DNA of 64,000 bases. It comes from an uncultured bacterium. GTDB lineage: Bacteria > Krumholzibacteriota > Krumholzibacteriia > LZORAL124-64-63. Positions 3,400 to 57,768 of the stretch are shown here, one piece after another. The position numbers and the translations under genes are program-made. Each line of letters starts with the position of its first letter. Position 1 is the first letter of the stretch. The DNA is taken from contig CAVSZB010000005.1 of the NCBI GenBank assembly GCA_963732385.1, forward strand, positions 32,001 through 96,000. Direction: 5' to 3'. The notes beneath the pieces were generated by a model, which was not told where the DNA came from, made no database searches, and saw nothing but the letters and a program-made list of their open reading frames with translations.

Positions 3400-6300
3400 C
3401 TACTGCCCCATATTGGCCGGCAGCCTGAACTGCGCGAAGAAGCCGGGGGCGAACGGGTTGTCGCGGGAGCGCGGCTGCAGGTCGTAGCTGGCCGGCTGGC
3501 TGTGGCCGCTGCCGTCCTCGAGCGCCCACTCCAGCCGGTAGAGGCCGCCGTCCTGGGGCGTGACCGTGGCCGCATCCAGCAGGCGGAAGAGGGACCACAC
3601 CCCTTCCTGTGCGTTCTCGGGCTCCGAACCGTCGCTCAGGTGCAGGGCGATGCGGGCCGCCTGCACGCCCCCCAGGTCCGGCCACTGGTACGGCCACCAC
3701 TTGCGCCCGCCGCTGCCGCTGGAGTACTCGAGCGAGGCGCTGTTGCCGATCTTGAGGCTCGAGTACTGGGCCGGCGGCGTGACCTGGCGCGGCCGGATGT
3801 CGAAGGCGAGCCGCGGTTCGTCGGCGTTCTCGAGGCCGAAGGCGCGGCGGATCGCCGCCGCCGCGTCGAGGGCCAGCTTCAACTCGGCGCCGAGTCCGGC
3901 GTCCCCGCCGCCCGCGCCGCCGCTGCCCGACGCCGCGTACTGGGGCAGTTCGCGGTCCACGAACGTCTTGAGCGTCCCCTTGACCCCGCCGAAGAAGCGC
4001 CCGAACTCGTCGACCGTCACGTCGACCCGGCTCGTGCGGTCGAAGGGATACTTCGACGCCAGCGACCGGTACGGCTCGAGGACCTGCCGCTGCCACGATT
4101 CGTCGAGCCGGCTGAACGACTCGCCCCGGCAGGCCCGCAGGGCGATCTGCGCCGGGCCGCGCAGGTACGCCCGGAGCGCCTCGTTGCTGGCCGTCTCGCC
4201 CCGGCGCGACGACCCGCAGAACCGGTTGGCGATCCCCTGCAGGTGCCCGAAGACGTGGTCCTCGCTCTCGGGCTTCTGGTCGATCTCGCGCGTCATCTCG
4301 AGCGCCCGCCGCCCGGTGTCGCCGGCCCCGCGCAGCTCGGCGAGCTTGGCCGCCAGCTTGGTGAACATTTCGCGGTAGTCGCCCGCCCGGCTCCCCTCCG
4401 GTCCGACGTCGCCCGCCTTCTTCACGAAGGCGCGCAGCGTGGCGAAAGCGGCGTCGATGTCGAGCAGACGGGAGTACGTGACGCGGTCGTCGCCCTTGAG
4501 CTGGCTGTCGAAGTAGACGTTGCGTTCGACCTCCTGCAGCAGGCGGTAGAACGGCGAATCGTCCCGCGCCAGATCCTCGAGGCGGTCGACCGTCTCCATG
4601 AGACCGCCCTGGCGCGACACGGCCACGGCGCTCAGGAAACGGTTCCAGCGCTCGACGTACTCGCGCGCGTACCAGGAGAGGAAACTGGACGGATCGGCAG
4701 CATCGCGTCCGGCTCCCCGCAGGTCCGCCATCAGCCAGGCCGGCAGCGGCTGGTTGCCCGTCCTGGCCAGCGAGGCCCGGATCCGCTCCCAGCCGCCGAG
4801 GGTGAAAGCCCCCTCCACCCGCGGTCCCTCCGACGCACCGTCGGCCGCGACCAGCAGCAGCGGCGCCCCCGGCACCGAGGCCAGCGTGAACGGGCCGGCC
4901 TCGTGACTGGCGGCATCGATCAACGCCGAGAACAGCCGGTCCTCGCGCGACGACGCCTCCCAGAGACCCCGGAGGCGATAGGCCAGGTCGCTCGACGGCG
5001 CCGTGCGCCAGGCCGCCAGATCCTCCTTGTGGGTCCAGGTGTAGGCGACGTGCTGCTGGATCAGCGTCAGCAGTTCGCCGCCCTCCCCGCCGCCGCGGCC
5101 GGTCCACAGACGCCCGAGCTGGCCGGCCAGCAGCGGCGCCTCGCCGAGGGAGGGATCGCAAAGCATCCGGTAGGCGACATACGGCTCGTAGAAGGCGTCC
5201 CATGCTGACCGTGACTCCGGCGCGGCGAGCCGGCGTTCGAGCTCGTCGCGACTGGGCACCAGCAGCGCCCGCGCCAGACCGTCGACGTAGCGACGGCGGG
5301 CCTGCCGGTTGAGTTCGCGCCCCTGGTAGAGGCCGAGTCCGAGGCGGAAGCCGGCGCGCGCGTCGCGCGCGTCGAGCAGCTCCAGCTGCCGGCGCAACGG
5401 GTCGAGCTGCTGCAGCTGGACGCGCAGATCTCCGGGCGAGCGCGGCGTGACCGGATCGGCCCGGTAGTCGAGCGCCACGCGCTGCGTTTCGCGCAACAGC
5501 CGGCGATTGCCCACGAACGACGACAGCATCCAGACGCCGCACAGCAGCAGCCCCAGGCCGGCGGCGGCGGCGCCCAGCAGGTGCATCCTCCGGCCCCGCT
5601 GCGTCGCGCCGGCGGTGGGGCGGGCGATCGCGCGATCGGGGATGATCACGTTCAGGAACAGGTTCGCCAGGAAGCTCGGAGGGGTCTGGCCCGCGCCGGC
5701 GACGGGCCCGCCGCCGCCGCCGCTGGCGAAGTAGAGCCCGCGCAGCAGCGGGCCGTGCTCGAAGCTGCCGGTGGCGAACAGCCCCTTCACGCAGTGCCGC
5801 AGGCGGTCCCGCAGCGCGTGGAACTCCAGCGGGAAGAGGTAGATGCCGCCCAGCGGCTCCGGGCGCAGCTCGCGCACGAGCCGCGGCATCCGCCGCTTCA
5901 GGAGAGTGTGGTACAGGAGCTGGAACTCCTGGTCGAACAGCTTTTCCGGCGTGGTCTGCGCCATCAGGGCGCCGCTGAGCGTCGCGCCCCAGATCTGGTC
6001 GCGCGCCGCCCCCGACAGATCGCCGAAGAACTCCCCGAAGCCGCGGATCAGGTCGATCTTCGTCACCACGACATAGACGGGGAAGACCAGGCGCAGGTCG
6101 CGGCTGAGGTCGTCGAGGCGCCGGCGCAACAGCTGGATCTGCGCCTCCAGCCGCGCGCCGTGGCCCTGGCTGAGCTCCTCGGCGGAGATCGTCACGACGA
6201 CGCCGTTGAGGGCCGGCTGGCGAATCTTGCGGAGCTGTTCGAGAAAGGCGCTCCAGTCCCGCTCCGTGGCCTTGTCCTGCGCGGGATCGGCGAAGCGGTG

Positions 6301-6846
6301 ATCCGCCTCCAGCACGACGGCCTGGTTCGTGAACCACCACTCGCAGTGGCGCGAGCTGCCGATCGCCTTCATGTCGCCCGCCTGCCGACCCGGCACGCGC
6401 AGGCCGGAATGGCGCACGAGCGTGCTCTTGCCCGCGCCGTCGGCGCCCAGCACCATGATCCAGGGCAGGGCATGCAGGGCCGCGCCGCCGGCCACGCCGC
6501 CGGCCACGGAGCTCCGCTTCAGCGCGGCGAGCGCCGCCAGCAGTTCCTGGCGGGCCGCCTCGCGCGAACGCTTCTGGTCGTCGCCGGCGTCGGCCACGCT
6601 GGCGTCCGCCTCGCGGATCAGCGACACCTCGACCTGCTCGGACTGCTTCCGCCGGCGCAGGATCAGCACGAGCTCCACCGCCAGCGCCACGACCACGATC
6701 CCGATGATGAGATAGAGGCGCAGATGGCCGGTGATGCCGAAGCGGCCGCCCAGGCGCAGCAGCAGCGCCACCAGCGCCGCCGCCACGAGCAGGACCACGC
6801 TCTGCGGGTGGAACAGGATCTTGAAGATCTTGGCGATGATGTTCAT
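3400..6846 (-). CDS. tssM: T6SS membrane complex subunit TssM (IcmF)
   Basis: N-terminal TM helices; LPWIMVLGADGAGKSTL Walker A; CEWWFTNQAVVLE; LNGVVV; FPVYVVVTKIDLIRGF; LLRGLYFAS; C-terminal YPF and W-LFRLLD; follows tssL. Confidence 0.95.
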   Translation of the reverse strand: MNIIAKIFKILFHPQSVVLLVAAALVALLLRLGGRFGITGHLRLYLIIGIVVVALAVELVLILRRRKQSEQVEVSLIREADASVADAGDDQKRSREAARQELLAALAALKRSSVAGGVAGGAALHALPWIMVLGADGAGKSTLVRHSGLRVPGRQAGDMKAIGSSRHCEWWFTNQAVVLEADHRFADPAQDKATERDWSAFLEQLRKIRQPALNGVVVTISAEELSQGHGARLEAQIQLLRRRLDDLSRDLRLVFPVYVVVTKIDLIRGFGEFFGDLSGAARDQIWGATLSGALMAQTTPEKLFDQEFQLLYHTLLKRRMPRLVRELRPEPLGGIYLFPLEFHALRDRLRHCVKGLFATGSFEHGPLLRGLYFASGGGGGPVAGAGQTPPSFLANLFLNVIIPDRAIARPTAGATQRGRRMHLLGAAAAGLGLLLCGVWMLSSFVGNRRLLRETQRVALDYRADPVTPRSPGDLRVQLQQLDPLRRQLELLDARDARAGFRLGLGLYQGRELNRQARRRYVDGLARALLVPSRDELERRLAAPESRSAWDAFYEPYVAYRMLCDPSLGEAPLLAGQLGRLWTGRGGGEGGELLTLIQQHVAYTWTHKEDLAAWRTAPSSDLAYRLRGLWEASSREDRLFSALIDAASHEAGPFTLASVPGAPLLLVAADGASEGPRVEGAFTLGGWERIRASLARTGNQPLPAWLMADLRGAGRDAADPSSFLSWYAREYVERWNRFLSAVAVSRQGGLMETVDRLEDLARDDSPFYRLLQEVERNVYFDSQLKGDDRVTYSRLLDIDAAFATLRAFVKKAGDVGPEGSRAGDYREMFTKLAAKLAELRGAGDTGRRALEMTREIDQKPESEDHVFGHLQGIANRFCGSSRRGETASNEALRAYLRGPAQIALRACRGESFSRLDESWQRQVLEPYRSLASKYPFDRTSRVDVTVDEFGRFFGGVKGTLKTFVDRELPQYAASGSGGAGGGDAGLGAELKLALDAAAAIRRAFGLENADEPRLAFDIRPRQVTPPAQYSSLKIGNSASLEYSSGSGGRKWWPYQWPDLGGVQAARIALHLSDGSEPENAQEGVWSLFRLLDAATVTPQDGGLYRLEWALEDGSGHSQPASYDLQPRSRDNPFAPGFFAQFRLPANMGQ

Positions 6847-6916
6847 GGCCCTCCGCCACGCCCCGGGACGTCCGCTGCGACCGCGCGGCGCCGCCTGCGC
6901 GCCGCGTCGCGCCCTC

Positions 6917-7600
6917 TCAGCGCAGCAGCGCGAGCGCCTTGTGCGCCGCGCCGCCGATCATCAGGCGCAGGATCACGTACAGGACCAGCAGCCCGCCCGC
7001 GCCGCCGGCCACCGCCCACCAGAGCGGGAAGCCGCCCGCTGCGCCCCCCGCCGGGTTGTCGCGTCGCTTGCCGTTGGGCGCGAGCCTGATCTCCCGCCGG
7101 TCGCGCGGGTCGTAGCCCAGCTCGCGGCGGATCTCGTCGACCAGCGGCCGCAACTGCTCGCGCCCCGCCACCCGGTACTGCCCCTCGAAGCCGAGCGTCA
7201 GGCAGAGGTGGTAGATCTCGAGCAGGTCGTGCTTCGCGTCGCCGCCGCGGCGCACCTCGGCGAGGTTCGTGAAGAAGCGCGTGCCGGCGAGCCTGTCGCC
7301 GAACAGCTGATGCTGCAGCGGATTGGCGCGCCACAGTTCGCGGTGGTCCCAGTTCGAGCCGAGGATCGTCTCGTCGATGAAGGCCACCAGCGGGTACTTC
7401 ACGGCCTCGATGTCGTCGCGCCCGAAACCGGCTTCGAGCCCCTCGCGCTCGAGGCCGGCCAGGTGGCTCCTGATGCTCTGGCGCAGCGCATCCTCGCTGC
7501 CGTAGTTGCTGCTGTCGCGCAAAGAGAGGATGACGCCGAACAAACCGGTGGCGAGGTCCTGCAGACTGCGCCGCGGTCGGACCTGCTGCGCCCGTTCCAT
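6917..7600 (-). CDS. tssL: T6SS membrane protein TssL (DotU family), without an OmpA-like C-terminal extension
   Basis: YPLVAFIDETIL...W...PLQHQLFG...GTRFF...LEIYHLCLTLGFEGQY; C-terminal TM helix; start refined to ATG at 7600. Confidence 0.93.
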   Translation of the reverse strand: MERAQQVRPRRSLQDLATGLFGVILSLRDSSNYGSEDALRQSIRSHLAGLEREGLEAGFGRDDIEAVKYPLVAFIDETILGSNWDHRELWRANPLQHQLFGDRLAGTRFFTNLAEVRRGGDAKHDLLEIYHLCLTLGFEGQYRVAGREQLRPLVDEIRRELGYDPRDRREIRLAPNGKRRDNPAGGAAGGFPLWWAVAGGAGGLLVLYVILRLMIGGAAHKALALLR

Positions 7601-7622
7601 GCCGCCACCCCCCTGGCTTCTC

Positions 7623-8978
7623 TTACTGCATGACGACGAGTTCGTAGGTGAGGCCGCACAGGTCGTGGCTGCCGGTGTAGATGGCCAGCGAGCGCCCCTC
7701 CACGATCGTGTCCCAGATCTCGCCCCGGGACTCGAGCTTGAAGTACGTGCGTCCAACCTTCAGCGGGAAATTCCGCGGCGGCACCGGCACGTGGACCGGC
7801 ACCACGCCGGGCGTGGCGGTCCGCACCAGGAAGTCGATGTTGTGCGGGCTGCCGACGATCACCTGCACCGGGACCTCGTCGCGGACACGCGCCTCCGACA
7901 GTTCGCCGCTCACGCCCAGGAACCACTGGACCGACGGCTCGAACAGACGCTCGTCGGCGCAGGTGCCCACGAGCACCCACTCGTCGCGCGGGGCGAGCGG
8001 GATGGCGGTGACGAGCTGGGGAATGCCCTTCTCGAGCAGTTCGCGGATGGTCCGCTCCAGTTCGCCGAACACCGGGCCGAGGTTCTCGTGCTGGTAGGCC
8101 GGCAGTTCGCGGGGGCTCCGGTCGACCACGAACGTGCAGAGCGCGCCCGCCAGCTGCGCCAGCGTGAGGTACGCCGGCAGCGGGTGGCCGCGCGGATTGC
8201 GCTGGTGGTGCGCCAGCAGAGGGACGAACGAGTTCGCGGTGTGCAGCAGCCAGAAGTGACCCACGTCGGCGGTGCCGAAATCGACCAGCCCGCCCCCGCG
8301 CTGCCGCGTCCCCTCGCTCAGGTAGGCGCTCTTGGTCACCAGCGTCTCGAGCAGGAAGCGCATGATGCCGGGCAGCGGACCGGCTGCCGCGATCGTCAGG
8401 CTCGGCGGCGCATAGTCGCGCGCGAGGATGAACCGGCCGTCGCTGGCGCGTTCGATCTCGGCGATCTTCAGCACGACGTGACCGGCCAGGTTCTCGCCGC
8501 CGAAGGCGAGCTTCAGATTCAGGCGCGAAACGACGATCTCGACCTGCTTGCCGGGGTCGTTCTCGTCGATGACCCGCACCACATCGCCGAGCTGGCGCGT
8601 TTCCGCGGCGCCGGTGCGCTCGGGCAGGCGGCAGAGCGGCACGCCGGCCCGCTCCTCGGGCGTGGCCAGGAACACCTCGAACCGCGTCTGGTCGGGACCG
8701 AACGCCTCGTTGAGCGGCCGACTGGGCGGCAGCGGGTCGACGGCGGGCGCGCGCACGATGCCGCCGTCGGGCAGGACGGCGTCCACCTCCAGCAGGGTCA
8801 GGCGGCCGTTGCCCAGCGCCTCGGTATCGATCTGCAGCGAGCGGACGCCCCAGGCGAACGGGATCAGGGCGTCCTGCCGGAACTGGATCTCGCCGAGCAG
8901 GGCGCGATCCGCCTGCTGGAAATGCTGAGGGCCGAGAAACATGCCCTCCTGCCAGACGACGCGGTTGTGACGGCTCAT
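7623..8978 (-). CDS. tssK: T6SS baseplate subunit TssK
   Basis: VVWQEGMFLGPQHFQQADR...WGVRSLQID...VLPDG; Y-HENLGPVF. Confidence 0.96.
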   Translation of the reverse strand: MSRHNRVVWQEGMFLGPQHFQQADRALLGEIQFRQDALIPFAWGVRSLQIDTEALGNGRLTLLEVDAVLPDGGIVRAPAVDPLPPSRPLNEAFGPDQTRFEVFLATPEERAGVPLCRLPERTGAAETRQLGDVVRVIDENDPGKQVEIVVSRLNLKLAFGGENLAGHVVLKIAEIERASDGRFILARDYAPPSLTIAAAGPLPGIMRFLLETLVTKSAYLSEGTRQRGGGLVDFGTADVGHFWLLHTANSFVPLLAHHQRNPRGHPLPAYLTLAQLAGALCTFVVDRSPRELPAYQHENLGPVFGELERTIRELLEKGIPQLVTAIPLAPRDEWVLVGTCADERLFEPSVQWFLGVSGELSEARVRDEVPVQVIVGSPHNIDFLVRTATPGVVPVHVPVPPRNFPLKVGRTYFKLESRGEIWDTIVEGRSLAIYTGSHDLCGLTYELVVMQ

Positions 8979-9009
8979 GATCGCTGCGGCCCCTTCGTTG
9001 TCCGCCCGC

Positions 9010-9486
9010 TCACGACTTGTCCGCGGTCAGGCAGAGCTTCTCCAGGCGGATGGCGATCCGGGCGGAACCGCCCTCGAGCCTGACCACCTTTTTCCAGCAC
9101 CCCGAACGGTGATCGCAGAAATCCGCCACCACGCCGACGGCCGTCACCCCCTTGCCGCGCGCCAGCTCGAAGATCTGCGCCGGCTCGCCCGGCATGACGG
9201 TCAGCTCCCTGACCGACGCCACGGCCTCGCCCAATGCCCGGCCCCGGTCGTCCCAGAGCCGGTCGAAGGCCGCTTCGCCGAACGCCTCCGCGTCGCGCAG
9301 GCTGTAGATGCGCACGACCACGGCATGATCGGCCGGATCGTCGCACGAGTTCAGGCGGGCCGCCCCCACCACGCTGAAGGCATCCCTGGCGGCGCCGCCC
9401 AGCCCCAGCATGCTGCATCCGCTGACGCCCACGGCCAGGCCCAGGAGCGTCCCCAGCGCCAGCGCCCTACCGATTCTGACCGACAT
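9010..9486 (-). CDS. tssJ: T6SS outer-membrane lipoprotein TssJ
   Basis: Lipobox VSGC; LN...AVVVRIYSL...F...PGE...VGVVADF...WK; directly upstream of tssK. Confidence 0.88.
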   Translation of the reverse strand: MSVRIGRALALGTLLGLAVGVSGCSMLGLGGAARDAFSVVGAARLNSCDDPADHAVVVRIYSLRDAEAFGEAAFDRLWDDRGRALGEAVASVRELTVMPGEPAQIFELARGKGVTAVGVVADFCDHRSGCWKKVVRLEGGSARIAIRLEKLCLTADKS

Positions 9487-9567: not shown

Positions 9568-10221
9568 TCAGCGGCCTGCGATGCCGGGCGGTGGCGGGAA
9601 GCCCGGCAACGGTCCGGCCGGCGTCGTTTCGCCGTCGCCGCCGCCGCCACCGAGACTCATGGCCAGACCGCCGACCACGCCGACGATCAGCGCGATGCCC
9701 AGCGGCTTGGCGAAGAACGACTTGCCGCCCTTTCCGGTCTGCACCGGCGTCGGCTGCCAGGTCGGCTGCGGCGCGGGAGCGGGCGTCGCGGGCGACACGG
9801 TCGCCGGCGCCGACTCGCTGCGGCAGCCCGCCGCGGCCTGATCGAAGTCCACCTGCTCGTCCCTGGGCAGCACGTCGGCCTCCGGACGCCAGCCGGCGTC
9901 GATCCGGAGCGCCTCGCAGAACATGTCGCGCGCGATGCTGTGATTGCCCAGGTTCACCAGACAACGCGCCTTCAGCACGTAGGCGTCGCGCAGGGCCGCA
10001 CCTTCGAGCGTGCCGCCACTGATGAACTCGTTGCAGATGTCGAGCGCCTTCTGGAAGTCCGCGAAATCATACAGATCCTGGGCCTGAGCGAGTGCCGGAG
10101 TCCCGGCCGCGAGCGCGGCCCCGATCCAGAGCCCGCCCGGAGCCACGGTGGCCAGAAAGGCGATCAGGGTCGCCAGGCCCAGAACCCGAAAAGCGTTGTG
10201 GCGACGGTAATTGCCCATCAT
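9568..10221 (-). CDS. Exported TPR-like protein with a C-terminal membrane anchor and Pro-rich tail
   Basis: N-terminal hydrophobic signal; helical AQDLYDFADFQKALD...AYVLKARCLVNLG...ARDMFCEALRID; C-terminal TM then GGGGGD...PGFPPPP. Confidence 0.65.
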   Translation of the reverse strand: MMGNYRRHNAFRVLGLATLIAFLATVAPGGLWIGAALAAGTPALAQAQDLYDFADFQKALDICNEFISGGTLEGAALRDAYVLKARCLVNLGNHSIARDMFCEALRIDAGWRPEADVLPRDEQVDFDQAAAGCRSESAPATVSPATPAPAPQPTWQPTPVQTGKGGKSFFAKPLGIALIVGVVGGLAMSLGGGGGDGETTPAGPLPGFPPPPGIAGR

Positions 10222-10315: not shown

Positions 10316-12456
10316 TCAGGGCGCCGACAGTTCGAAGCGGATCCGGATCTCCTGGTTCTCGGCCAGCCTGACCTTCACCCGCCCCTCCCCCCCGCGCCGC
10401 GGCTGAAAGTCAGCGCGCCGCCATCGCCCGCGTTCTGGGCGCCGGTCACCACGTAGCCGGGGCAGCGCGCGCCGATCGTGTGCTCGCCCGCCTCCAGCTT
10501 CACCTGCAGGAAGGGGGTCTGCTGGCCGGTGTCGATCCCGTCGATCGTCACGAACGCGGCCGGGGTGGCGGCCACGCGCAGTGAGCCGGTCCGCTCGAGG
10601 AAGCGGTGGTGCCCCAGCGCGAGCGTCTCGCCGGCCGCGATCTGGAAAGCCGGCAGGTCGAGGCGCCCGTACGACGGTCGGTACCGCAAAGAGACGGCGT
10701 GACGCCCGGCGTTGGCGGCCATCACGGCGACCTTCGCCCCCTCCTTGACCAGCTTCCCGTCCAGATAGACGTCCGCGTACGGAGAGATCACCACCCGCGC
10801 GTAACCGCGGCCCGGCGTCGCCGCGACCGTGGCGGAAGCGGCAGGGGGGGCGGCCACCGGTCGTTGTTGCGCCGGCGCTGTCGTGGGCGCTGTCGTGGGC
10901 GCTGTCGTCGGCGCTGTGGTCGGCGCTGTGGTCGGCGGGGTCGACGCAGCCGGCGGCGGCGTCGACAGCGGCGCGTCGACCGGCGCTGCGGGCGCCGGCG
11001 TCGAAACCGCCACGGTGTCCGGCGTCACGCCCGTGCGCGCGAACCGCGGCACGGGAGAGAGCAGGCGGCCGCCGATCATGATCGCCGCGGCGGCCACGAC
11101 CACCAGCACGGCCGCGGCCGCCCAGCGCGAGCCGGGCGAGGCGAACCATGAGCGGAGGCTGCTGCCGGACCCGGCGCCGGCCGTGCGGCCGGCCTTCGGC
11201 GCCGCCGCCTTCGGTTCGGGCGGGCGCGCCCTGCCAGCGGTGCGGGAGGCGGGGGCTGCGGAGGCCTTGGGCATGACGAGCGTGCGGCCGGTGGCGTCCT
11301 CGTCGGCGCGGGCCGGGCGGGCGGCGACGGCGAGGCTCTGGCCCGATTCCTCCGCCCTGCGCTTCAGTTCGCTGATCGCCTCGCTGGCCTTGCTGTTCTG
11401 CGGGTCGAGCGAGAGGACGTAGTGGAACTCGCGGATCGCATCGCCGATGTTCTCGAGCCCCATGTTCTTGAAATGGAAGCCGGCGTTGAGGTGGGCCTTG
11501 ATGTTCTGGTGCCGCAGCTCCTCGGCGAACGCCATCGGCTCCTTGGCGAAACGGGCCAGGTAATCGCGGCGGTACTTGATCAGGGCGCCCGACCGGTCGA
11601 TGCTCTCCATGCACTCCTTGAGCGCCAGCAGCACCTGGTCCATGTTCTGGTAGCGCTTCGCCGGGTCCTTCGCGAGCATCTTCTCCATCAGGGACGAGAG
11701 CTCCGCGGTCAGCAGCGGGCAGGCTTCGCGGGTCAGCGGCGCCGGCGCGTCGTTGATGATCGACTCCTGCACGGATGTCGGCGTGTCCCCCTTGAACGGC
11801 TTCTCCCCGGACAGGAGCTGGTAGGCCATCACGCCGAGCGAGAAGATGTCCGTGCGATGGTCGAGGTCGTCCCGGCCCGCCGCCTGCTCCGGCGACATGT
11901 ACGACGGCGTGCCGACGACCATCCCCGGCAGCGTCAGGTTCTGGGCGGTCAGGCGCGCGAAGTCGCGGGTGTCGCGGGCGAGGCCGAAGTCGGCGATCTT
12001 GATCTCGCCGTCGTTGCTCAGCAGCACGTTGTTCGGCTTCATGTCGCGGTGGATGATGCCGGTCGTGTGGGCGGCCTTCAGGCCGTAGGCCACCTCTTCG
12101 AGGATCAGCAGCGCGATCTCGGCGGGCAGCGGCCGCGAGCGGCCGGCGGCCTTCTGGAAATCGGCGAACAGCTTCTGCAGATCGGGGCCTTCGATGTACT
12201 CCATGACGATGAAGTACATGTCGTCTTCGGAGCCGAAGTCGATCACGCGGGCGATGTTGTTGTTCTGCAGCGAGGAGGCGGCCCGCGCCTCACGCTCGAA
12301 GCGGGCGATGAAGCTTTCGTCTCCGGCCAGGCCGGGGTGCAGGACCTTGACGGCGACCGAATAGTGCAGCGTTCCGTGCAGTCCCCGGTAGACCGTGGAC
12401 ATGCCGCCGGAGCCGATCTTCTCCTTGATCTCGTAGCCGTGGAACGTCGCCCCCAC
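10316..12456 (-). CDS. Hanks-type Ser/Thr kinase 2 (kinase-TPR-TM-PEGA-like repeats); C-terminus frameshifted at a G7 run
   Basis: IGSGGMSTVY, VAVK, HRDMKPNN, DFG, GTPSYMSPEQ; TM; PEGA-like repeats. The ORF stops at 10375, but adding one G at 10387-10393 gives ...AGGEGRVKVRLAENQEIRIRFELSAP* ending at 10316, which parallels the paralog's C-terminus. Confidence 0.92.
10874..10937. repeat. 12-bp tandem repeat, about 5 copies, encoding a (PTTA)n linker
   Basis: GGCGCTGT(C/G)GT(G/C) repeated 5 times inside the extracytoplasmic linker of kinase 2. Confidence 0.9.
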
Positions 12457-12490: not shown

Positions 12491-14875
12491 TCAGGTCCGC
12501 GGTTTCCGCTTCAACTGCAGGTCGATCTTCAACCGGTCCCCCTGCGCGATCGTCACGCGGAAGGAGGTGTACTTGCCGCCGGAGCTGAGCGGCGGGAGCT
12601 GTTTCTGGCTGCCGTCGGCGGCCACCTGCGACGCGGTCTGCACGGTGAAGTCGTCGCTGCGGACCGTCAGCGTATGCTCGCCTGGCTCGAGACGGCCCGT
12701 CCACGGCGTGTTGCCGACCCGCTCCTGATCGATGTCCAGCGGGACCGGATCGGTCGCCTCGATAGCCACCTCTCCGCCACTGAGCACCATCTCCAGCCGC
12801 ACGCCCAGGGTCTGCCCGCCGCTGATCCTCACCTTCTTCATGACCGGCGCGTAACCCGGCTTCTCGGCCCGCACCTCCCAGTTGTCCGCCGCGGTCAGTT
12901 CGGTGACCACCGGAGCGGTGCCGACCGGCCGCCACGGCTCCCCGGCCTGGCGCACCAGCACGGTGGCGCCGTCGGGCGTGACGCGCACGCGGATCCGGCC
13001 GCTGGAGCTCACCGCCGGCGCGGCCGCGGCCTCGCTCGGGGTCTCGGCGATCGTGGCCGGCGCCGGCACGGCAGCCGCGGTCCCGGGCGCGCCGGTGGCC
13101 GCGACAGCGGGCGTTTCGCCCTCTCCCTCCGGAACGAGCGCGCGCAGCTGTCCGCCCACGGAGGTCGTTTCACTCCCCGCCGCCGTCACGGCGAGCACCG
13201 TGTCCGCGTACCCCGCCAGCGACAGCCGGAACTCCCAGGCGCCGACCGCCAGGTCCGCCAGCACGCAGGCGGTCTGGCGACCGGTCGGGGTGAAATCGGC
13301 GGTGCCGGCCCGCCGCATCCAGACCTGCGCCCCTGCCGGCTCGCTGGCCACCTGTACGATCGCCGTGGCCGGCGGCGCGGTCGGGCCGCGCCGCGTGAGC
13401 AGGACCGCGGCCACCGCCACGATCACCACCGCTCCGAGCGCCATCGCCACCATGCCCCGTCGCCGGCGCAGCCCCTCCAGAATACCGGCCACGGGCGACG
13501 CGGCGGCGCGATCCGGCCGCGCCTTGCGCGGCTGACGCGGCTCCCGCGGCACACGCGGCGCACGCGGCGGCGGCGGCGCAGCCGCAGCCGGCTCCGGCGC
13601 GGGCGCCGCGACCGGCTCGGCGGCGCGCCGTGGCGGGCCGGCCGCCGGCATGACCATGGTGCGTCCCGACTCCACCGGGTCGGCGGCATCGACATCGTCG
13701 GGCTCGTGCGCGCCGAGCGGACCGGCGCCCGTGGGCGGGGGCGCGGCGCGCATCGTGACCCCTGAATCCTCGGCCCGCTTGCGCAGTTCGGCCAGGGCCT
13801 GCGAAGCCTTCGGGTTGCGCGGGTCGAGGCGCATGACGTGACGGAATTCGCGCAGCGCGTCGGACATGCTGGCCAGGCCGAGGTTCTTGAAGTGGAAGCC
13901 GAGCCGCAGGTGCGAGTTGATGGCCTGGTGGCGCAGATCATTGGCGGTGGCGGCCGGGTCCCGGGCGAAGCGCTGGAGCAGGTCGCGCCGCAGCTTCACC
14001 AGCCCGCCCGACGAGTCGATGCTGTCCATGCACTCCCGCAGCGCGTGCAGCACCTGGTCCATCGACTGGTACCGCTTGCCGGGATCCTTGGCCAGCATCT
14101 TGCTGACCATCTCCTCCATCTCGTTCGTCAGGAGCGGGCACGAGGTCTCGGCCAGCGGACGGGGCGAGGCGTTGATGATGCGCTCCTGCACCTCGGTCGG
14201 GCTGTCGCCCTGGAACGGCTTCTCGCCGGCGAGGAACTGGTAGGCCATGACGCCGAGCGAGAAGATGTCGCTGCGGTGATCGACGTCGTCCCGGCCGACC
14301 GCCTGCTCCGGCGACATGTACGAGGGGGTGCCGACGATCATGCCCGGGCGCGTCAGGTCGTCCGAGGCCATCCGCGCCTGGTCGCCCGTGTTGCGCGCGA
14401 GACCGAAGTCGGCCAGCTTCACCTCGCCGCGCCGGTCGATCAGGATGTTGCTCGGCTTGATGTCGCGGTGGACGACCCCCTCGGCATGCGCCTCGCGCAG
14501 CGCGTACGCCACCTCTTCGAGGATCAGCAGGGCGATCTCGGGCGGCAGCGGCTGGGCCGCGCCGCTCTCGGCGCGCAGCATCTCGAACACCTTGGCCAGG
14601 TCGGGCCCGTCGATGAACTCCATCACGATGAAGTAGCAGTCATCCTCGCTGCCGAAGTCGATGACCGAGGTGATATTGACGCTGCGCAGCGCCGAGGCCG
14701 CCTTGGCCTCCCGTTCGAAGCGCGCGATGAACTGCGTGTCGCCGGCGAGGCCGGGGTGGAGGATCTTGACCGCGACGGGATAGCCCAGCGTCGTGTGGAC
14801 CCCCTTGTAGACGGTCGACATCCCGCCCGCGCCGATCTTCTCGTGCACTTCGAAGCCGTGAAACGCTGTAGCCAC
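12491..14875 (-). CDS. Hanks-type Ser/Thr kinase 1 (kinase-TPR-TM-PEGA repeats)
   Basis: IGAGGMSTVY, HRDIKPSN, DFG, GTPSYMSPEQ; TM; VASEPAGAQV and VTPDGATV PEGA-like repeats; GTG start with GGAGG RBS. Confidence 0.94.
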   Translation of the reverse strand: MATAFHGFEVHEKIGAGGMSTVYKGVHTTLGYPVAVKILHPGLAGDTQFIARFEREAKAASALRSVNITSVIDFGSEDDCYFIVMEFIDGPDLAKVFEMLRAESGAAQPLPPEIALLILEEVAYALREAHAEGVVHRDIKPSNILIDRRGEVKLADFGLARNTGDQARMASDDLTRPGMIVGTPSYMSPEQAVGRDDVDHRSDIFSLGVMAYQFLAGEKPFQGDSPTEVQERIINASPRPLAETSCPLLTNEMEEMVSKMLAKDPGKRYQSMDQVLHALRECMDSIDSSGGLVKLRRDLLQRFARDPAATANDLRHQAINSHLRLGFHFKNLGLASMSDALREFRHVMRLDPRNPKASQALAELRKRAEDSGVTMRAAPPPTGAGPLGAHEPDDVDAADPVESGRTMVMPAAGPPRRAAEPVAAPAPEPAAAAPPPPRAPRVPREPRQPRKARPDRAAASPVAGILEGLRRRRGMVAMALGAVVIVAVAAVLLTRRGPTAPPATAIVQVASEPAGAQVWMRRAGTADFTPTGRQTACVLADLAVGAWEFRLSLAGYADTVLAVTAAGSETTSVGGQLRALVPEGEGETPAVAATGAPGTAAAVPAPATIAETPSEAAAAPAVSSSGRIRVRVTPDGATVLVRQAGEPWRPVGTAPVVTELTAADNWEVRAEKPGYAPVMKKVRISGGQTLGVRLEMVLSGGEVAIEATDPVPLDIDQERVGNTPWTGRLEPGEHTLTVRSDDFTVQTASQVAADGSQKQLPPLSSGGKYTSFRVTIAQGDRLKIDLQLKRKPRT

Positions 14876-14897
14876 GCCGCCTCCCTTTTCGTCCGGC

Positions 14898-15671
14898 TCA
14901 GGTCCGACTCTGCCGGGCCACCACGACCGTGATGTTGTCGGGGCCGCCCTCCTTGCGCGCCCGCTCCACGAGGAGCTGGCAGGCGCGCTGGGGCAGGTGC
15001 ATCGAGACGATGCGCAGGATTTCGGGGTCGTGAATCACTTTGATCAGGCCGTCCGAGCAGAGCACCAGCGTGGCCCCCTCGGCGAAGATGACCGGGTTGC
15101 CGATGTCCGGCTCCACGCCCTCCTCGTTGCCGAGCCAGCGCGTCAGGACGTTCGACAGGCTCTGCTTGTCGGGCGGCAGCGTCTGGCCCTGGCGCCGGTA
15201 CTCGCCGCCGAGCGAGTGGTCTTCGGTCAGCGGGAAGAGCTGCCCGTCGTGCGCGAGATAGGCGCGGCAGTCGCCGATGTGGCCGATCACCAGCTCCTGC
15301 CCGCGGACCACGGCGGCCGTGCAGGTCGTGGCCATGTTGGCGCGCAGCGGACTGGCGGCCGCATCGGCGAGGATGGCCCGGTTGGCCTCGAGCAGCGTCT
15401 CGTAGAGGGCCGCCCGCAGGTCGGTCGGCACGCCGGCGGCGAAGAAACGCTCGCCGAAGGTCTGCACCGCGATCCGGCTCGCCACCTCGCCCGCCGCGTT
15501 GCCGCCCACGCCGTCGGCCACGACGAGCAGCAGCGCCCCGGGCGCGGTGTCGCAGGTGAAGATGCCGACCGCGTCTTCGTTCTTCTCGCGCCGGCAGCCG
15601 ATGTCGCTGAGGCTGGCGTGCAGGAGTCGCAGGCCGGTGGCCGGTGACGTCGGCGGGCTGTCGTGGTTCAT
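14898..15671 (-). CDS. PP2C-family Ser/Thr phosphatase (PppA/Stp1-like)
   Basis: SDIGCRREKNED, VADGVGG, GEVAS, HIGDCRAY, LCSDGL, GGPDNITV; ATG overlaps the upstream stop (ATGA). Confidence 0.95.
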   Translation of the reverse strand: MNHDSPPTSPATGLRLLHASLSDIGCRREKNEDAVGIFTCDTAPGALLLVVADGVGGNAAGEVASRIAVQTFGERFFAAGVPTDLRAALYETLLEANRAILADAAASPLRANMATTCTAAVVRGQELVIGHIGDCRAYLAHDGQLFPLTEDHSLGGEYRRQGQTLPPDKQSLSNVLTRWLGNEEGVEPDIGNPVIFAEGATLVLCSDGLIKVIHDPEILRIVSMHLPQRACQLLVERARKEGGPDNITVVVARQSRT

Positions 15672-17041
15672 GAGCCTCCTCTGCGACCCGGGAGCGCGAG
15701 GCCCGCCGGACGCGTTGTCCTGCGATAGACGAGCCCGACCGCGCCGCCCAGGAGCACGCGATCGCCTTCGCCGATGGTGGCCGTCCGCACCGGCCGTTCG
15801 TTGACCTGCGTCCCGTTCGTCGAGCGCAGATCGGTGATGATGACCGCGCCCCGCCGCACCCGCAGCACCGCGTGCTGGCGGGAGACCCGCGGCTCCGCCA
15901 CGACGATCGTGTTGCCGGCCGCCGAGCCGATCGTGGCGCCCGAGCGCGGCAGGCGGTGCACGGTCTGGCGTCCGCCGGCCGTCACGACCAGTTCGCCGGC
16001 CGAGGCGAAGCGCAGCCGCGCCAGCACGACCGCCGCGACGATCAGCACCAGGGCCGCCAGCAGCAGCGCCGGCCAGCGGCCGATGCCGCGCTCGGCGAGC
16101 GCCCGGCGGGCGCGCAGCGTGCCGTCGGCCGCGAGCTCGCCGTCGGCGCGCGTCACGCGCAGCGTCACGTCGGCCGGCAGCCCCACGCCCGGCGCGGCAA
16201 ACCGCGCCGCCAGCGCGCCGTCGACGACGGCCACCAGCCGCCGCACCGCCATCCCGGCCTCGCCGGCGCCGGCGGTCAGCAGCCGGCCGCCGCTGCCGTC
16301 GGCCAGGCGCCGCAGCCGCGCCGCCTCGGCGCCCGCCGCGTCGGTATCGCCGAGCAGGACGACGTACACCGCCACCCGGGCCGAGTCGGCGGCCGCCAGG
16401 CAGCTCACCGACGAGTAGCGGCTGCCCTGCCCCTGCCGGCCGCTCGTCACCACGATGAGCGTCCGCCGCGCCGGCAGCTCCGGAAAGGCCAGCACGGCCA
16501 GCGCGTCCTTCACATTGTCCCACAACGGGACCGGCGTGTCGCCGGCGAGGTCGGCCGCGGCCGGCGGGCGGGCCGCTCCCGCGCCGCCGCCACCGCCCGG
16601 CGCCAGCCGCCGCAGCGCCCGCGGACGCGACCCCGTCGCATAGAGTCCGCGCCAGGCGTCGGGCGCGGCCTGCCCCGCGAACGCCGCCAGCGCCTCGCCG
16701 CAGGCCGCCACGGCGTCGGCGGGCAGGCCGCGCAGATCGGCCAGCACCGCCACCGCCGACGGCGCGCCGCCCGGAGCGGGGGCGAACGGCAGCAGCGTCG
16801 GCGCGCCCACCGGCCCGCCGCCCGCCGCGAGCGTCAGCGCCGCGGCCGGCACCGCCAGCGGCAGACCGCCGGCGTCGACCAGCGTGAACGGGAGCTGGTA
16901 CTGCCCGCCCGTCAGCGGCACGCCCGGCTCGAGCCGCAGCTCGGCCGCAACCCCCTGGGCCCGCGCGCCGCCCCCCGGCGCCAGCAGCGCAATCACGACG
17001 GCCGCCGCCCGCAGCGACCGGAATCCGCGGCGTGAAAGCAT
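15668..17041 (-). CDS. Membrane protein with an extracytoplasmic degenerate vWA-like domain, TM helix and cytoplasmic FHA domain
   Basis: Signal peptide; TPVPLWD...RRTLIVVTSG...VYVVLLG...LRRLADGSGG (vWA-like); TM; IGSAAGNTIV...VSRQHA...DLRSTNGTQVN (FHA). Confidence 0.8.
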   Translation of the reverse strand: MLSRRGFRSLRAAAVVIALLAPGGGARAQGVAAELRLEPGVPLTGGQYQLPFTLVDAGGLPLAVPAAALTLAAGGGPVGAPTLLPFAPAPGGAPSAVAVLADLRGLPADAVAACGEALAAFAGQAAPDAWRGLYATGSRPRALRRLAPGGGGGAGAARPPAAADLAGDTPVPLWDNVKDALAVLAFPELPARRTLIVVTSGRQGQGSRYSSVSCLAAADSARVAVYVVLLGDTDAAGAEAARLRRLADGSGGRLLTAGAGEAGMAVRRLVAVVDGALAARFAAPGVGLPADVTLRVTRADGELAADGTLRARRALAERGIGRWPALLLAALVLIVAAVVLARLRFASAGELVVTAGGRQTVHRLPRSGATIGSAAGNTIVVAEPRVSRQHAVLRVRRGAVIITDLRSTNGTQVNERPVRTATIGEGDRVLLGGAVGLVYRRTTRPAGLALPGRRGGS

Positions 17042-17140
17042 GTCCGCGCCGCCCCTCCCCACGGTACGACCAGGTGCGCCGGCGGGAGAATCCCGACCCG
17101 CGTGGCGGAGTCTAAGGCGCGGCGGCGGGCATCGCAATCG

Positions 17141-18934
17141 CTAGTCGACCGGCAGATCGAACTGCTGTGGGCAGCGCATCACCACGGCCGCGGCCAGGAA
17201 GCGCGACACGTACTCCCGCGTCTCCTGCGGCAGACACGGCGCGTCCTTGCGCACGAGGTCCCAGAACTTCCAGCGCGACCACCAGTCGATGTTCATGCGC
17301 CGCAGGCAGGCGCGCAGCCCGTTGTCGCCCTTGTTGTAGGCGGCCACCGCGCACATGCAGTCGTTGGAACCGTAGGCGATCATCAGGTCCTGCAGGTACT
17401 GGCAGGCCGCGGTCGTGGCCCGCACCGGGTCCTTGCGCTCGTCGACGGTGTCGTCGACCCGCAGGCCGTAGTCGCGGGCGGTGCCGCGCATGAGCTGCCA
17501 CATCCCCATCGCCCCGGCCGGACTCTCGATCTCGGCCTGGTAGCCGCTCTCGATGAACGGAAGGTAGCAGAAGGCCTGCGGGATCCCCTGCGCCTCGAGC
17601 TGCGAGCGCAGCATGTCCAGGTGCGGCCGCGCCCGGCGGAGCGTGCGCAGGGTGTAGTCGCGCCGGTCGACCGTCCACATCCGCACGGCGCCTTCCACCT
17701 CCGCCACCATCGTGCCCGGCAGCGCGTCCAGCCGCGTGTCGACCCCGAACTGGGCGAAGATCCGCGACAGCTCCTCTTCCAGGCTGAAGGCCGGCGGCGG
17801 CGGGACGGCCGGCGCCGTCTCCTCGGCCGCGGTCACCTCGGGTTCCGGCGGCGGAGGCGGCGGCGGCCGCCGCCCCTCGCGCAGCTCCTGCAGCAGCGCG
17901 AACGGATCGCGGTCCCGCAGCCGATCCCGGTCGATCCGCTTGGCGGTCTCGCGCAGCGCCTCCCGCACTTCGTCGTCGCTCTGCCGGTCGGGCGGCAGCC
18001 GGTCGGCCGCGATCAGCGAGCGGATGGCGATCTCGAACTGCGCCTTGGCCACGGTGTCGTTGGGCGGCGAAGCGTCGTAGGCCACGAGCGCGTCGTCGAG
18101 GCTGCGCCGCGCCTGCTCGACGTACATGTCTTTCGTCCAGAGCCGCTCCACCCGCTCGCCCGCCGGCCGCAGCGACGGCAGCAGCAGCACCCCCACCAGC
18201 ACCAGCGCCGCGATCCCCAGCACCATCGCCCCATGCACCGAAGGCACGGGACACAACTGCACGGTGAAGACGACATCGGCGAACCCGACCCGGTCCCCCA
18301 CCCGCAGTACCCGCTCCTTGACCGCCTCCCCGTTGACGGAAGTGCCGTTCCTGCTCCCGGCATCGGTGAGCAGCAGCCGGTCCCCCCGCCGCTCGATCCG
18401 CGCATGCACCCCCGAGATCTGCGCCAGCGGCAGCAGCAGATCGGCCCCCTCGTCCCGCCCGATCACGCTCAGCTTGCGCGCCAGCAGCAGCGAGGCTCCG
18501 CCCGCCCGCGTATCGCGCGACACCAGCCGCAGACAGAGCAGCCCCGCCGGATCAGGCAGCCGCCGCCCCGCCCCCCGCGCCCGCACCGGCCGCTCGAGCG
18601 AGAACACGAACTCCCGCTCCGGCCCCAGCCGCAGCACCGCGCCGTCCCGCAACGGCGCCCGCCCCACCCGCTCCCCGTCGACAAAGGTCCCGTTGGCGCT
18701 CCCCTGGTCCTCGACGAACCAGACCGCCCCCTCCTGCACCAGCTGCGCATGCCGCCGACTGAGCGCCGCATCGTCGATACAGAGATCGCACCCCGCATCC
18801 CGCCCGATCAGCAGCCGCCCCCCGGCCGGCACGCACACGTCGGCCCCGCCCGCCCGCGGACGCACCCGCGCCCCGCAGGCCGGCCGCGCCCCCGCGCGCC
18901 CCCCCGCTCTAAGTCCGCCGGAAGTGTCAGCCAT
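17141..18934 (-). CDS. FHA-FHA-TM-lytic transglycosylase (MltD-like SLT) fusion
   Basis: Two FHA domains (IGRD...LSRRHA...GSANGT; IGRD...ISGVHA...GSRNGT); TM; SLT motifs PFIESGY, AGAMGMWQLM, DERKDP, AAYNKG, ETREYV. Confidence 0.92.
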   Translation of the reverse strand: MADTSGGLRAGGRAGARPACGARVRPRAGGADVCVPAGGRLLIGRDAGCDLCIDDAALSRRHAQLVQEGAVWFVEDQGSANGTFVDGERVGRAPLRDGAVLRLGPEREFVFSLERPVRARGAGRRLPDPAGLLCLRLVSRDTRAGGASLLLARKLSVIGRDEGADLLLPLAQISGVHARIERRGDRLLLTDAGSRNGTSVNGEAVKERVLRVGDRVGFADVVFTVQLCPVPSVHGAMVLGIAALVLVGVLLLPSLRPAGERVERLWTKDMYVEQARRSLDDALVAYDASPPNDTVAKAQFEIAIRSLIAADRLPPDRQSDDEVREALRETAKRIDRDRLRDRDPFALLQELREGRRPPPPPPPEPEVTAAEETAPAVPPPPAFSLEEELSRIFAQFGVDTRLDALPGTMVAEVEGAVRMWTVDRRDYTLRTLRRARPHLDMLRSQLEAQGIPQAFCYLPFIESGYQAEIESPAGAMGMWQLMRGTARDYGLRVDDTVDERKDPVRATTAACQYLQDLMIAYGSNDCMCAVAAYNKGDNGLRACLRRMNIDWWSRWKFWDLVRKDAPCLPQETREYVSRFLAAAVVMRCPQQFDLPVD

Positions 18935-18936
18935 GA

Positions 18937-19899
18937 TCACGTCGCCGCAGGCAGCGGGAAACACCGGAAGAGGAACCGCGTGCCCCCCATCTGCACCCGG
19001 TCACCATCGCGCAGCGCCTGCTCGGTAATCCGCACGTCGTTCACGAGCGTCCCGTTGGTGGAGTTGAGGTCCCGCAGCACGTACTGCCCCCCCCCGAACA
19101 CCACCTCCGCATGCCGACTGGAAAGGAACCGATCATCCCCGATGATGACATCGCACCCCGCCACCGACCCGAAGCGAAGGGTCCCGGCCGTCAACCGAAA
19201 GTCCCGCCCCCGCTGCGCCCCACTGACAGCCACGAGCCACGCCACCAACTCCTGCCGCCCCACCGGACTCATGAGGACAGCCGTCTTGTCGAGATCGTCC
19301 ACCGTCATCGCCCCCGGCGCCGCCACCGGCACCACAGGAGGAGGAGCAGCAGGAGGCGCAGGCGGCACATAGGCCGGAGGAGCCAGCAGGCGCAGCAGGA
19401 GCCGCCGGCGGAATGACCGGCCGCGCCCCGATCACCGTGATGTCATCCCCGCCCCCACCGGGTCCCCCCACCCCCGGCCCCGTCGGCACCCGACGGATCG
19501 GTTCGGAAACCGGCCGCGCCACCGGCGCATGCTCGATCCGCCGCACCGGCTCCGGCGCCCGCTGAAAAGGTTGAGGAGCAGGCGGCACCGCGCCAAGGGA
19601 GGAGGCGCAGCAGGAGCAGCCGGACAGCAGGAGCAGCCGGCCAAGTCGGCGGCCCCGCCGCCGGCGGCAGGAGACGTATAGGCAGGAGCCCCAGCCCCCG
19701 CATGAGGCGCCGGCGGCATCGGCTCCGCCGCCCGAGCCCCCCGCCCCGCCGCCGAACTCCCCCGCTCGTCATCTACAGGGATGAAATCCCCGCTAAGATC
19801 GCTCCCCCCCTCACAATAAGGACAGCTATCCCAAGACGGATCCAGGAGATGCCCGTTCGCACAATGCCGCACCTTGTTCTTCCGCTTCCCGAACAGCAT
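18937..19899 (-). CDS. Zn-ribbon, Pro-rich linker and FHA protein; broken across three reading frames
   Basis: N-terminal CANGH...CPYC; linker pieces in ORFs 19432-19929 and 19133-19588; C-terminal FHA in 18937-19368 (VAWLV...GRDFRL...LSSRHA...DLNSTNGT); GGAG RBS before ATG at 19899. Confidence 0.8.
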
Positions 19900-19965
19900 G
19901 CTCCCCCATCTCCCCCGCAGGACGGCCAAGCCAGCTAACTTTGTGGCTTGAGAAGGGTTCGGGGC

Positions 19966-48160: not shown

Positions 48161-48182
48161 GGTGGCTCCTGTCGCTGGATCG

Positions 48183-50846: not shown

Positions 50847-50878
50847 GAATCCCCTCCTCGCATCCGGGATCGTTGCGC

Positions 50879-53796: not shown

Positions 53797-54278
53797 CAAT
53801 CCCCCGTCGTGACCTGGACCGCGCCGCTGGCCGTTTCGACGCTCGTATCGAAGGAGATCGGTTCGCGCACCGGATCGACGTTGAGCAGCGCGTGGATGCT
53901 GAACTTCAGGCGCGCGTGCCCCTCTTCGCGCCCCGACACGGACTCCACCTTGATCGAGCGCGGCAGCAGCCGGGGCTCGAACGTGCGCAGCGCCTCTTCG
54001 ATGTGCACGCAGATGCGCTGACGGTCCGCATGGCTGCTGGAAAAGAGGGTCAGGTCGGGTATCCCGTAGGCGAGGATCGAACTGCGGGCCTCGGGCAGGT
54101 CCGACAGATCCAGCAGCGGCTGGCGCGAATTGAGCAGCCACTCGATGTCACGGCGCACCGACTGCTTCAGTTCCTCCACGCCGATGCGCAGATCGCCCTG
54201 ACGGCGCCCGCCGCCGGTCGACACCAGCCGATCGAGCACGGAGTGACGCAGAACATCCCTGGGCCGCGAGTCCGCCAT
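53796..54278 (-). CDS. tssE: T6SS baseplate subunit TssE (gp25-like)
   Basis: SVLDRL, VRRDIEWLLNSR, SILAYGIPD, FEPRL. Confidence 0.95.
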   Translation of the reverse strand: MADSRPRDVLRHSVLDRLVSTGGGRRQGDLRIGVEELKQSVRRDIEWLLNSRQPLLDLSDLPEARSSILAYGIPDLTLFSSSHADRQRICVHIEEALRTFEPRLLPRSIKVESVSGREEGHARLKFSIHALLNVDPVREPISFDTSVETASGAVQVTTGD

Positions 54279-54306
54279 CGCCGTCCCCTTGCGCCGACAC
54301 CCGGCG

Positions 54307-55122: not shown

Positions 55123-55145
55123 CACCCACCGCCCCCTTGCCGGCC

Positions 55146-55634: not shown

Positions 55635-55724
55635 GACGTTACATCCTTTCGGCACGGCGGGCGCCCTCAGGACGCACCGCCCTCCTCCATCACGCCGTGG
55701 ACGACGGGCCCTGCCCGCCGCCCC

Positions 55725-57221: not shown

Positions 57222-57222
57222 G

Positions 57223-57753: not shown

Positions 57754-57768
57754 CTTGGTCCCTCCCTC

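Follow-up and report, generated by a model that had tools for sequence, protein, structure and literature searches.

A candidate phosphorylation-coupled cell-wall opener encoded with a type VI secretion system in the Krumholzibacteriota

How does the membrane complex of a type VI secretion system (T6SS) get through the peptidoglycan, and can the signalling of the cell decide where its wall is opened? This question is raised by a gene in a 64,000-nucleotide stretch of an uncultured member of the Krumholzibacteriota (positions 32,001 to 96,000 of contig CAVSZB010000005.1, assembly GCA_963732385.1), hereafter the window, to which all coordinates refer. The gene, at 17141-18934 on the minus strand, encodes two FHA domains, a transmembrane (TM) helix and an SLT-type lytic transglycosylase domain in a single protein, and it is located close to Ser/Thr kinase genes and tssJKLM. 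MltE and TagX are needed for T6SS assembly (PMC10433429, PMC13584744, PMC5061870), and both are named as the wall remodellers in a 2026 review of T6SS accessory factors (PMC13584744). Specialised transglycosylases are described as an exception in T6SS clusters in a 2023 review (PMC10433429), and how phosphorylated FHA proteins trigger T6SS assembly is called unclear in the 2026 review (PMC13584744).

Across three phyla, the FHA-TM-SLT family was observed almost only together with T6SS genes. With moderate confidence, we propose that this protein, encoded within the cluster, opens the wall for the membrane complex of the T6SS in a manner coupled to phosphorylation; its enzyme activity, phosphothreonine binding and role in assembly are inferred.

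Domain layout, conserved residues and topology

The open reading frame (ORF) starts with an ATG at 18934 and encodes 597 residues, which are arranged as follows.

17141..18934, minus strand: FHA-FHA-TM-linker-lytic transglycosylase gene, 597 residues (Pfam, alignment, AlphaFold2 model)
18623..18811, minus strand: FHA domain 1, residues 42-104, with G44-R45, S59-x-x-H62 and N81-G82-T83 (Pfam, alignment)
18278..18466, minus strand: FHA domain 2, residues ~157-219, with G159-R160, S174-x-x-H177 and N196-G197-T198 (Pfam, alignment)
18170..18226, minus strand: single predicted TM helix, residues 237-255 (hydrophobicity, model)
17786..18133, minus strand: family-specific helical linker, residues 268-353, and Pro-rich spacer, residues 354-383, predicted to be periplasmic (model, profile)
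17153..17782, minus strand: MltD-like lytic transglycosylase domain, residues 385-594, without LysM; codon of Glu462 at 17549-17551

The original prediction of two FHA domains, a TM helix, a helical linker and an MltD-like SLT domain with an intact catalytic Glu in FIESGY was confirmed by Pfam, by the structural model and by alignment. Two stretches matched Pfam FHA above the curated cut-off (E 1.7e-37, best at residues 42-104), SLT (PF01464) matched residues 452-541 (E 8.9e-21, 74 bits against a cut-off of 21), and one hydrophobic segment, residues 237-255, lies between the second FHA domain and the SLT part. The AlphaFold2 model, built with 41 homologues (mean pLDDT 88.7, pTM 0.58), comprises two FHA beta-sandwiches, a helix at 233-255, a four-helix linker at 268-353, the Pro-rich spacer and a helical C-terminal domain. 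For this last domain, Pseudomonas aeruginosa MltD was the best match both by sequence (8rhe, E 8e-18) and by fold (8rhf), and comparison of the model with the MltD structures 8rhf and 8rhi assigned it to the SLT fold with a probability of 1.00. The SLT domain reaches to 3 residues from the protein end, and no LysM hit was found in the protein.

In the alignment of 41 full-length two-FHA proteins, picked from 138 hits, the residues expected of a working enzyme are conserved. FIESGY occupies residues 460-465, with Glu462 as the catalytic Glu; E462, S463, G477-x-W479-Q480, Y533, G536, E571-T572 and Y575 are invariant in 41/41 homologues, and N534 of the AYNxG motif is kept in 40/41. The motif set Glu-Ser, GxxQ, AYNxG and ETxxYV is the signature of family 1 lytic transglycosylases. 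The catalytic Glu was also retained in all 49 FHA-fused SLT domains of the tree set described below, and with such conservation the SLT domain is very probably an active enzyme. Both FHA domains carry the canonical set of G-R, S-x-x-H and N-G, which is the motif set of phosphothreonine-binding FHA domains; all of these positions are present in 41/41 homologues, the one exception being H62 with 40/41. The same motifs are found in the phosphothreonine binders GarA and FhaA, which were the top FHA matches.

Exactly one TM segment was predicted in 41/41 homologues and an N-terminal signal-like stretch in 0/41. Because a signal peptide is absent and two folded domains precede the helix, the natural topology would place the FHA domains in the cytoplasm and the SLT domain on the wall side, so that the predicted separation of the two parts by the membrane is consistent with these sequences. 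The SLT domain (17141-17782, minus strand) also holds five cysteines that are conserved in 37-40 of the 41 homologues, and disulfides between them would suit a periplasmic site.

The two-FHA form is kept at full length across two phyla with 42-50% identity, and its linker profile is rare, with 22 matches among 1.84 billion representatives. The closest named homologues of the 597-residue protein are labelled Candidatus Krumholzibacteriia (86% identity). A plasmid search gave no match, and the ESM Atlas search returned generic SLT clusters only.

Co-occurrence with T6SS genes in three phyla

Among 208 genomes of the host phylum, the linker-SLT part was matched in 17, tssM in 22 and both in 17, and the gene was found in 0/186 genomes that lack tssM. 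Within the six genera of patchy presence, the gene and tssM were found in 1/8 and 1/8, 2/5 and 2/5, 1/6 and 1/6, 1/2 and 1/2, 2/8 and 3/8, and 4/9 and 5/9 genomes, respectively, and this tracking inside genera lessens the objection that kinship explains the pattern. The genomes are related, and Fisher tests on the co-occurrence therefore overstate it. Five genomes of the host phylum carried tssM alone. Three of them (G019, G025 and G137) have a distant T6SS subtype, one (G167) has its tssM on an 877-base contig, and the fifth is G067. The best SLT matches in G067, G019, G137, G025 and G437 had no FHA domain. The distant subtype (L100-L102 in G019, L136-L137 in G137, L103 in G025) has an additional tssC-like gene behind tssM, and the stretches retrieved contained no part of the FHA-SLT cassette. 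An orthologue of the cassette kinase was found in 16 genomes of the host phylum, all of which have tssM; 13 of these are among the 17 carriers of the FHA-SLT gene.

A second phylum (that of G435, labelled uncultured Gemmatimonadota at NCBI) was represented by 12 genomes, with the gene in 6, tssM in 7 and both in 6, and the cassette was head to head with tssJKLM on five long contigs. In 15 of the 23 gene-carrying genomes of these two phyla, the gene and tssM were on one contig at a distance of 3.6-10.4 kb; the other 8 involved short contigs or contig ends. Of the five loci from a metagenome scan with the linker alignment, two were of insufficient length to show the context and one was already counted; the two added loci agreed with the gene-T6SS linkage.

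A single-FHA version was found in the Fibrobacterota. In a sample of 220 genomes, which included four seed genomes and left out G403, this version was present in 80, tssM in 87 and both in 78. Of the two copies without tssM, one (G360) lies inside a tssA-G cluster and the other on a 3.5-kb contig. All 20 proteins checked from the 92 matched were FHA plus SLT with one TM segment. Of the 78 genomes with both genes, 15 have the two no more than 11.5 kb apart. At least five arrangements were seen among the loci retrieved: the gene follows tssL-tssM or tssK, precedes a PEGA gene and tssKLM, is divergent from tssA or stands head to head with tssM. T6SS seems to be widespread in the phylum, several of the 87 tssM-positive genomes having two copies, and no title devoted to the subject was among those listed in the literature search on Fibrobacter and T6SS. 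In three Fibrobacterota loci (L016, L031 and L055), FHA-TM-SLT directly follows a Ser/Thr kinase with a CHASE2 domain, preceded in 2/3 by a FecR-domain gene; these copies are away from tss genes, and their genomes have tssM.

The link to T6SS that had been predicted thus stands for the carriers in these three phyla (17/17, 6/6 and 78/80 with tssM), but not for the wider architecture, which was also found without tssM, as weighed below. We conclude with good confidence that the FHA-TM-SLT protein is a T6SS accessory in this lineage.

The locus and its known counterparts

The genes around the FHA-FHA-SLT gene were found on the same strand in the order Cys-rich/FHA, FHA-FHA-SLT, vWA-like-TM-FHA, PP2C, two kinase-TM-PEGA genes, a small gene, tssJ, tssK, a short tssL and tssM. 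The features other than the gene itself are listed here, with the remaining T6SS genes of the window.

18937..19899, minus strand: upstream gene with a Cys-rich N-terminus, a Pro-rich linker with conserved Thr motifs and a C-terminal FHA domain
15668..17041, minus strand: downstream partner with a signal-like N-terminus, a vWA-like domain (weak hit, below cut-off), a TM segment and a C-terminal FHA domain
14898..15671, minus strand: PP2C-type Ser/Thr phosphatase
12491..14875, minus strand: membrane Ser/Thr kinase 1, PEGA domain, linker Thr406 motif
10375..12456, minus strand: membrane Ser/Thr kinase 2, PEGA domain, linker Thr392 motif
9568..10218, minus strand: conserved small protein with two hydrophobic stretches and no Pfam or NCBIfam hit, which travels with the kinases
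3400..9486, minus strand: tssJ, tssK, short tssL, tssM
45842..58857, minus strand: tssA, B, C, hcp, tagJ, tssE, F, G, clpV, vgrG

Domain searches showed that the adjacent kinases, expected from the start, are real, as are PP2C and tssJKLM. Intergenic gaps in the run are -4 to 156 bases, the interval 3000-20400 contains no terminator-like site (4.5 +/- 2.5 in shuffled sequence), and the promoter scan at the locus returned two sites, both weak; the FHA-FHA-SLT gene probably shares an operon with the two other FHA genes, the PP2C gene, both kinase genes and tssJKLM. The vWA-like-TM-FHA gene is directly 3' of it in 21/21 loci with downstream sequence. Adjacency to kinases, by comparison, held in this locus but not in G124, G141 and G031, in which PP2C borders directly on tssJ and the kinase gene lies at another place or was not found; in G124 and G141 the FHA-SLT gene is still beside tssJKLM though the kinase is gone from the locus. 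The upstream Cys-rich/FHA gene is broken over three frames here and is a single ORF of about 300 residues in G002, G006 and G016; the split is probably due to assembly indels in G/C runs. A tblastn map showed that the genome carries one T6SS only. Its tssL product stops just past the TM helix and lacks an OmpA-type domain.

Candidate ligands of the FHA domains are encoded in the same run. A T-x-hydrophobic-hydrophobic motif was found in the juxtamembrane linker of 19/19 cassette kinases, compared with 1.29 expected from shuffles, these kinases being homologues and hence not independent; here it is represented by Thr406 of kinase 1 and Thr392 of kinase 2. In most relatives, the upstream protein has similar Thr motifs ahead of its FHA domain, including conserved D-x-T-x-hydrophobic motifs, which we take to resemble the phospho-switches of the GarA/OdhI type. 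FHA domains read phosphates and hence act downstream of kinases. By analogy with other Hanks kinases and FHA proteins, the Thr motifs may be phosphorylated and then bound by FHA domains.

Three other regions of the window were noted. The region at 20000-25800, between both T6SS blocks, has a G+C content of about 0.56 at 20-24 kb, carries GmrSD-like, RelA/SpoT-region, Schlafen/ATPase and two SIMPL genes, and looks like a defence insertion. The region at 35390-45841, around vgrG, contains a DUF2169 gene, a 1029-residue ORF with a PLD domain, a HEAT-repeat ORF and three related proteins, two of which have peptidoglycan-binding domain hits; it is probably a T6SS cargo region. An ORF at 556-1431 on the plus strand has a weak, below-cut-off match to the N-terminus of the mosaic adhesive trimer fibres of Bdellovibrio and adjoins a FlgD-Ig protein.

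We then compared the protein with known systems. MltE of enteroaggregative Escherichia coli, which is recruited by TssM, is likewise a lytic transglycosylase proposed as a spatially controlled wall opener for TssJLM, but it is a housekeeping enzyme whose gene is outside the cluster and whose activity is stimulated by TssM (PMC10433429, PMC13584744); the FHA-FHA-SLT protein is cluster-encoded and MltD-like, with an inner-membrane-type helix and two FHA domains. TagX of Acinetobacter, which is required for T6SS, is comparable as an inner-membrane peptidoglycan hydrolase that is encoded in the cluster and has its catalytic domain in the periplasm (PMC5061870). It differs in being an L,D-endopeptidase without FHA (PMC5061870), whereas the protein here has the glycan-cleaving SLT fold. 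TagH/Fha1 of the TagE-TagG-TagH pathway is also an FHA reader whose T6SS cluster encodes PP2C and a membrane Ser/Thr kinase as well (PMC13584744, PMC3224232). TagH lacks a wall enzyme, and its mechanism is called unclear in the 2026 review (PMC13584744); the FHA-FHA-SLT protein, unlike TagH, couples the reader to an enzyme across the membrane.

By family tests, the protein is not TagX, TagH or MltD. The VanY-type L,D-endopeptidase domain of TagX is absent, FHA, YscD_cpl and SLT being the only hits. The TagH family model TIGR03354 scored 67.4 against a cut-off of 120.25 bits, and no protein in the host genome reached that cut-off. Identity with an ordinary MltD was rejected on an NCBIfam PRK10783 score of 82.9 against 508 bits and on the absence of C-terminal LysM repeats; the P. 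aeruginosa MltD (family 1; 8rhe/8rhf) shares the catalytic motifs and differs in having such repeats. EtgA, VirB1 and SltF are specialised transglycosylases of the type III secretion system (T3SS), the type IV secretion system (T4SS) and flagella, and to our knowledge none of this class has a cytoplasmic phospho-reader. In this class, named in PMC10433429, a machine that spans the envelope is likewise encoded together with a glycan cutter of its own. YscD/CdsD of the T3SS has a similar FHA-TM layout, and the mycobacterial FhaA-MviN pair also places wall metabolism under FHA-phosphothreonine control; the fold search matched the CT664 and FhaA-Rv3910 structures. The periplasmic domains of YscD/CdsD build rings, and FhaA is a separate protein that acts on a synthetic step rather than a fused hydrolase. 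Identity with YscD/CdsD was rejected since PF16697 matches the FHA part only, and a helical linker and SLT follow the helix. The gene is encoded in T6SS loci across species, as T6SS-associated (tag) genes are. No description of an FHA-SLT fusion was found in the literature searched, which did not cover subscription papers and supplements, and the words 'transglycosylase' and 'SLT' gave no match in the available part of PMC3482391; the suggestion that the fusion is an undescribed solution for T6SS agrees with this.

Proposed mechanism, alternatives and meaning

In the proposed mechanism, the kinases would phosphorylate the T-x-hydrophobic-hydrophobic motifs in their juxtamembrane linkers and in the FHA protein encoded upstream. 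The tandem FHA pair would dock on the phosphorylated sites and gather the enzyme at the assembly site, probably with its vWA-like-TM-FHA neighbour, and the tethered MltD-like domain would open the glycan mesh locally where TssJLM assembles. PP2C would remove the phosphates and reverse the recruitment, so that kinases and phosphatase would decide the place and time of cutting. As the SLT domain is without the LysM repeats of MltD, its position would depend on the FHA tether. A complex prediction of residues 256-597 with the periplasmic segment of TssM scored 0.00 against a mark of 0.32 and was used neither for nor against the model.

Several observations weigh against this reading. The charges flanking the helix show no clear positive-inside bias: the mean number of Lys and Arg is 1.95 before and 2.34 after it in the 41 homologues, the protein itself has 0 before and 4 after, and only 22/41 have a higher net charge ahead of the helix than behind it. 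The host genome has four further SLT-family genes elsewhere that could do the same job. The genome G067 (92% complete) has the same T6SS subtype together with the FHA, PP2C and kinase genes, and lacks the FHA-SLT gene and its vWA-like neighbour, which implies that the gene is dispensable somewhere. The kinase orthologue was not found in 4/17 gene carriers of the host phylum, all of them draft assemblies. Because linked genes travel together, the co-occurrence is partly that of one mobile block. In the Fibrobacterota, 63/78 genomes show the gene and tssM on no common contig, with kinship uncontrolled, and some copies adjoin housekeeping or CHASE2-kinase genes. Finally, among 251 genomes of the Acidobacteriota, FHA-TM-SLT was present in 3, with tssM in 0/3, and 22 other genomes with tssM had no match to the FHA-TM-SLT query; no match to tssM was found in the metagenome-assembled genome (MAG) of a further FHA-TM-SLT carrier (L022).

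The wider family was sampled in four phyla. A full-alignment scan of the genome collection, in which the matches listed were mostly ordinary MltD genes, gave the leads L013, L016, L022, L024, L031 and L055, and the single-FHA query P0055 had no match in 5 deltaproteobacterial-type and acidobacterial genomes. In a quick, midpoint-rooted tree of 98 SLT domains with SH-aLRT support, a branch supported at 98% separates all 49 FHA-fused, the kinase-fused and 2 LysM-bearing domains from 46 of the 48 FHA-less MltD-like domains, which suggests one origin of the FHA-fused SLT domains. An SLT-LysM gene on the same branch as the FHA-fused domains was found in a Syntrophorhabdaceae MAG (L015:449-11770), with two kinase-FGE genes, three genes of FHA type and PP2C after it; tssM had no match in that genome. 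In G006 (contig C19; L104:9295-11643, minus strand), a Ser/Thr kinase-TM part is joined to the same linker-SLT module, in which Leu stands at the position of the catalytic Glu; this protein is probably a wall-sensing receptor kinase derived from the FHA-SLT family. P0140 has the same kinase-TM-SLT layout, and P0146 is a receiver-domain-SLT protein. Since the architecture occurs without tssM in 3/3 Acidobacteriota carriers and one other MAG, FHA-TM-SLT is probably a kinase-linked wall module that was recruited to T6SS and not a T6SS invention. The simplest history is that such a module became tied to T6SS in several lineages.

The same occurrences bear on the explanation that the protein is a general kinase-controlled wall-remodelling enzyme, which has a regulatory cassette and a mobile block in common with T6SS and does not open the wall for it. 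One of the three tssM-less Acidobacteriota copies is beside a kinase gene, the unfused SLT-LysM gene of L015 lies in a kinase/FHA/PP2C cluster, and the absence of the gene from G067 and the many Fibrobacterota copies far from tss genes fit it as well. We nevertheless consider it unlikely, as the gene is missing from 186/186 and 5/5 tssM-less genomes in two phyla and occurs in 2/133 in the Fibrobacterota, and as its T6SS linkage survives several rearrangements, the gene staying with tssJKLM when the kinase moves. A little less likely again is a sensor, in which the SLT domain would act upstream of the kinases by sensing or generating a wall signal (e.g. anhydro-muropeptides or damaged glycan) that triggers phosphorylation, with the FHA pair as a scaffold replacing TagH. 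The Glu-to-Leu kinase fusion of G006 would suit such a role, as would the receiver-domain relative P0146 and the lack of a protein reaching the TagH cut-off in the host genome, but the Glu is invariant in the FHA-fused family, FHA domains are established to act downstream of kinases, and the separate soluble FHA protein with its conserved Thr motifs could serve as the TagH-like part.

Two further roles appear improbable. The short TssL without an OmpA-type domain would be compatible with a protein that mainly anchors the membrane complex to the wall in place of TagL, with cutting being secondary, and TagL is the anchor in systems with such a TssL (PMC13584744); yet LysM and OmpA-type binding domains are absent from the protein and its catalytic motifs are fully conserved. 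Least probable is a secreted antibacterial effector. Lytic transglycosylase effectors do exist, such as Tse4 (PMC10433429), but the conserved membrane helix, the two FHA domains and the full-length conservation across two phyla argue against it, as does the position in the regulatory and membrane-complex operon, and not next to vgrG, in 21/21 two-FHA loci with downstream sequence.

For the phosphorylation-coupled wall opener that we prefer, the consequences are as follows. The crossing of the wall by the membrane complex has been answered in two systems only, by the borrowed MltE and by the peptidase TagX, and a cluster-encoded FHA-TM-transglycosylase offers a direct, testable link between wall crossing and the FHA-phosphorylation trigger. 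It also reveals that T6SS have an accessory set of their own in phyla on which the literature searched showed no study. More tentatively, peptidoglycan cleavage may be the output of T6SS threonine phosphorylation in these phyla, with a phospho-gated, FHA-switched transglycosylase as the checkpoint that would license each assembly site; the protein might then be the T6SS-recruited branch of undescribed signal-controlled wall cutters, in which FHA, kinase or receiver domains serve as interchangeable cytoplasmic inputs. Through this protein, kinase signalling likely determines the place at which the wall is opened for T6SS building, which points to a general way to switch a periplasmic wall hydrolase from the cytoplasm.

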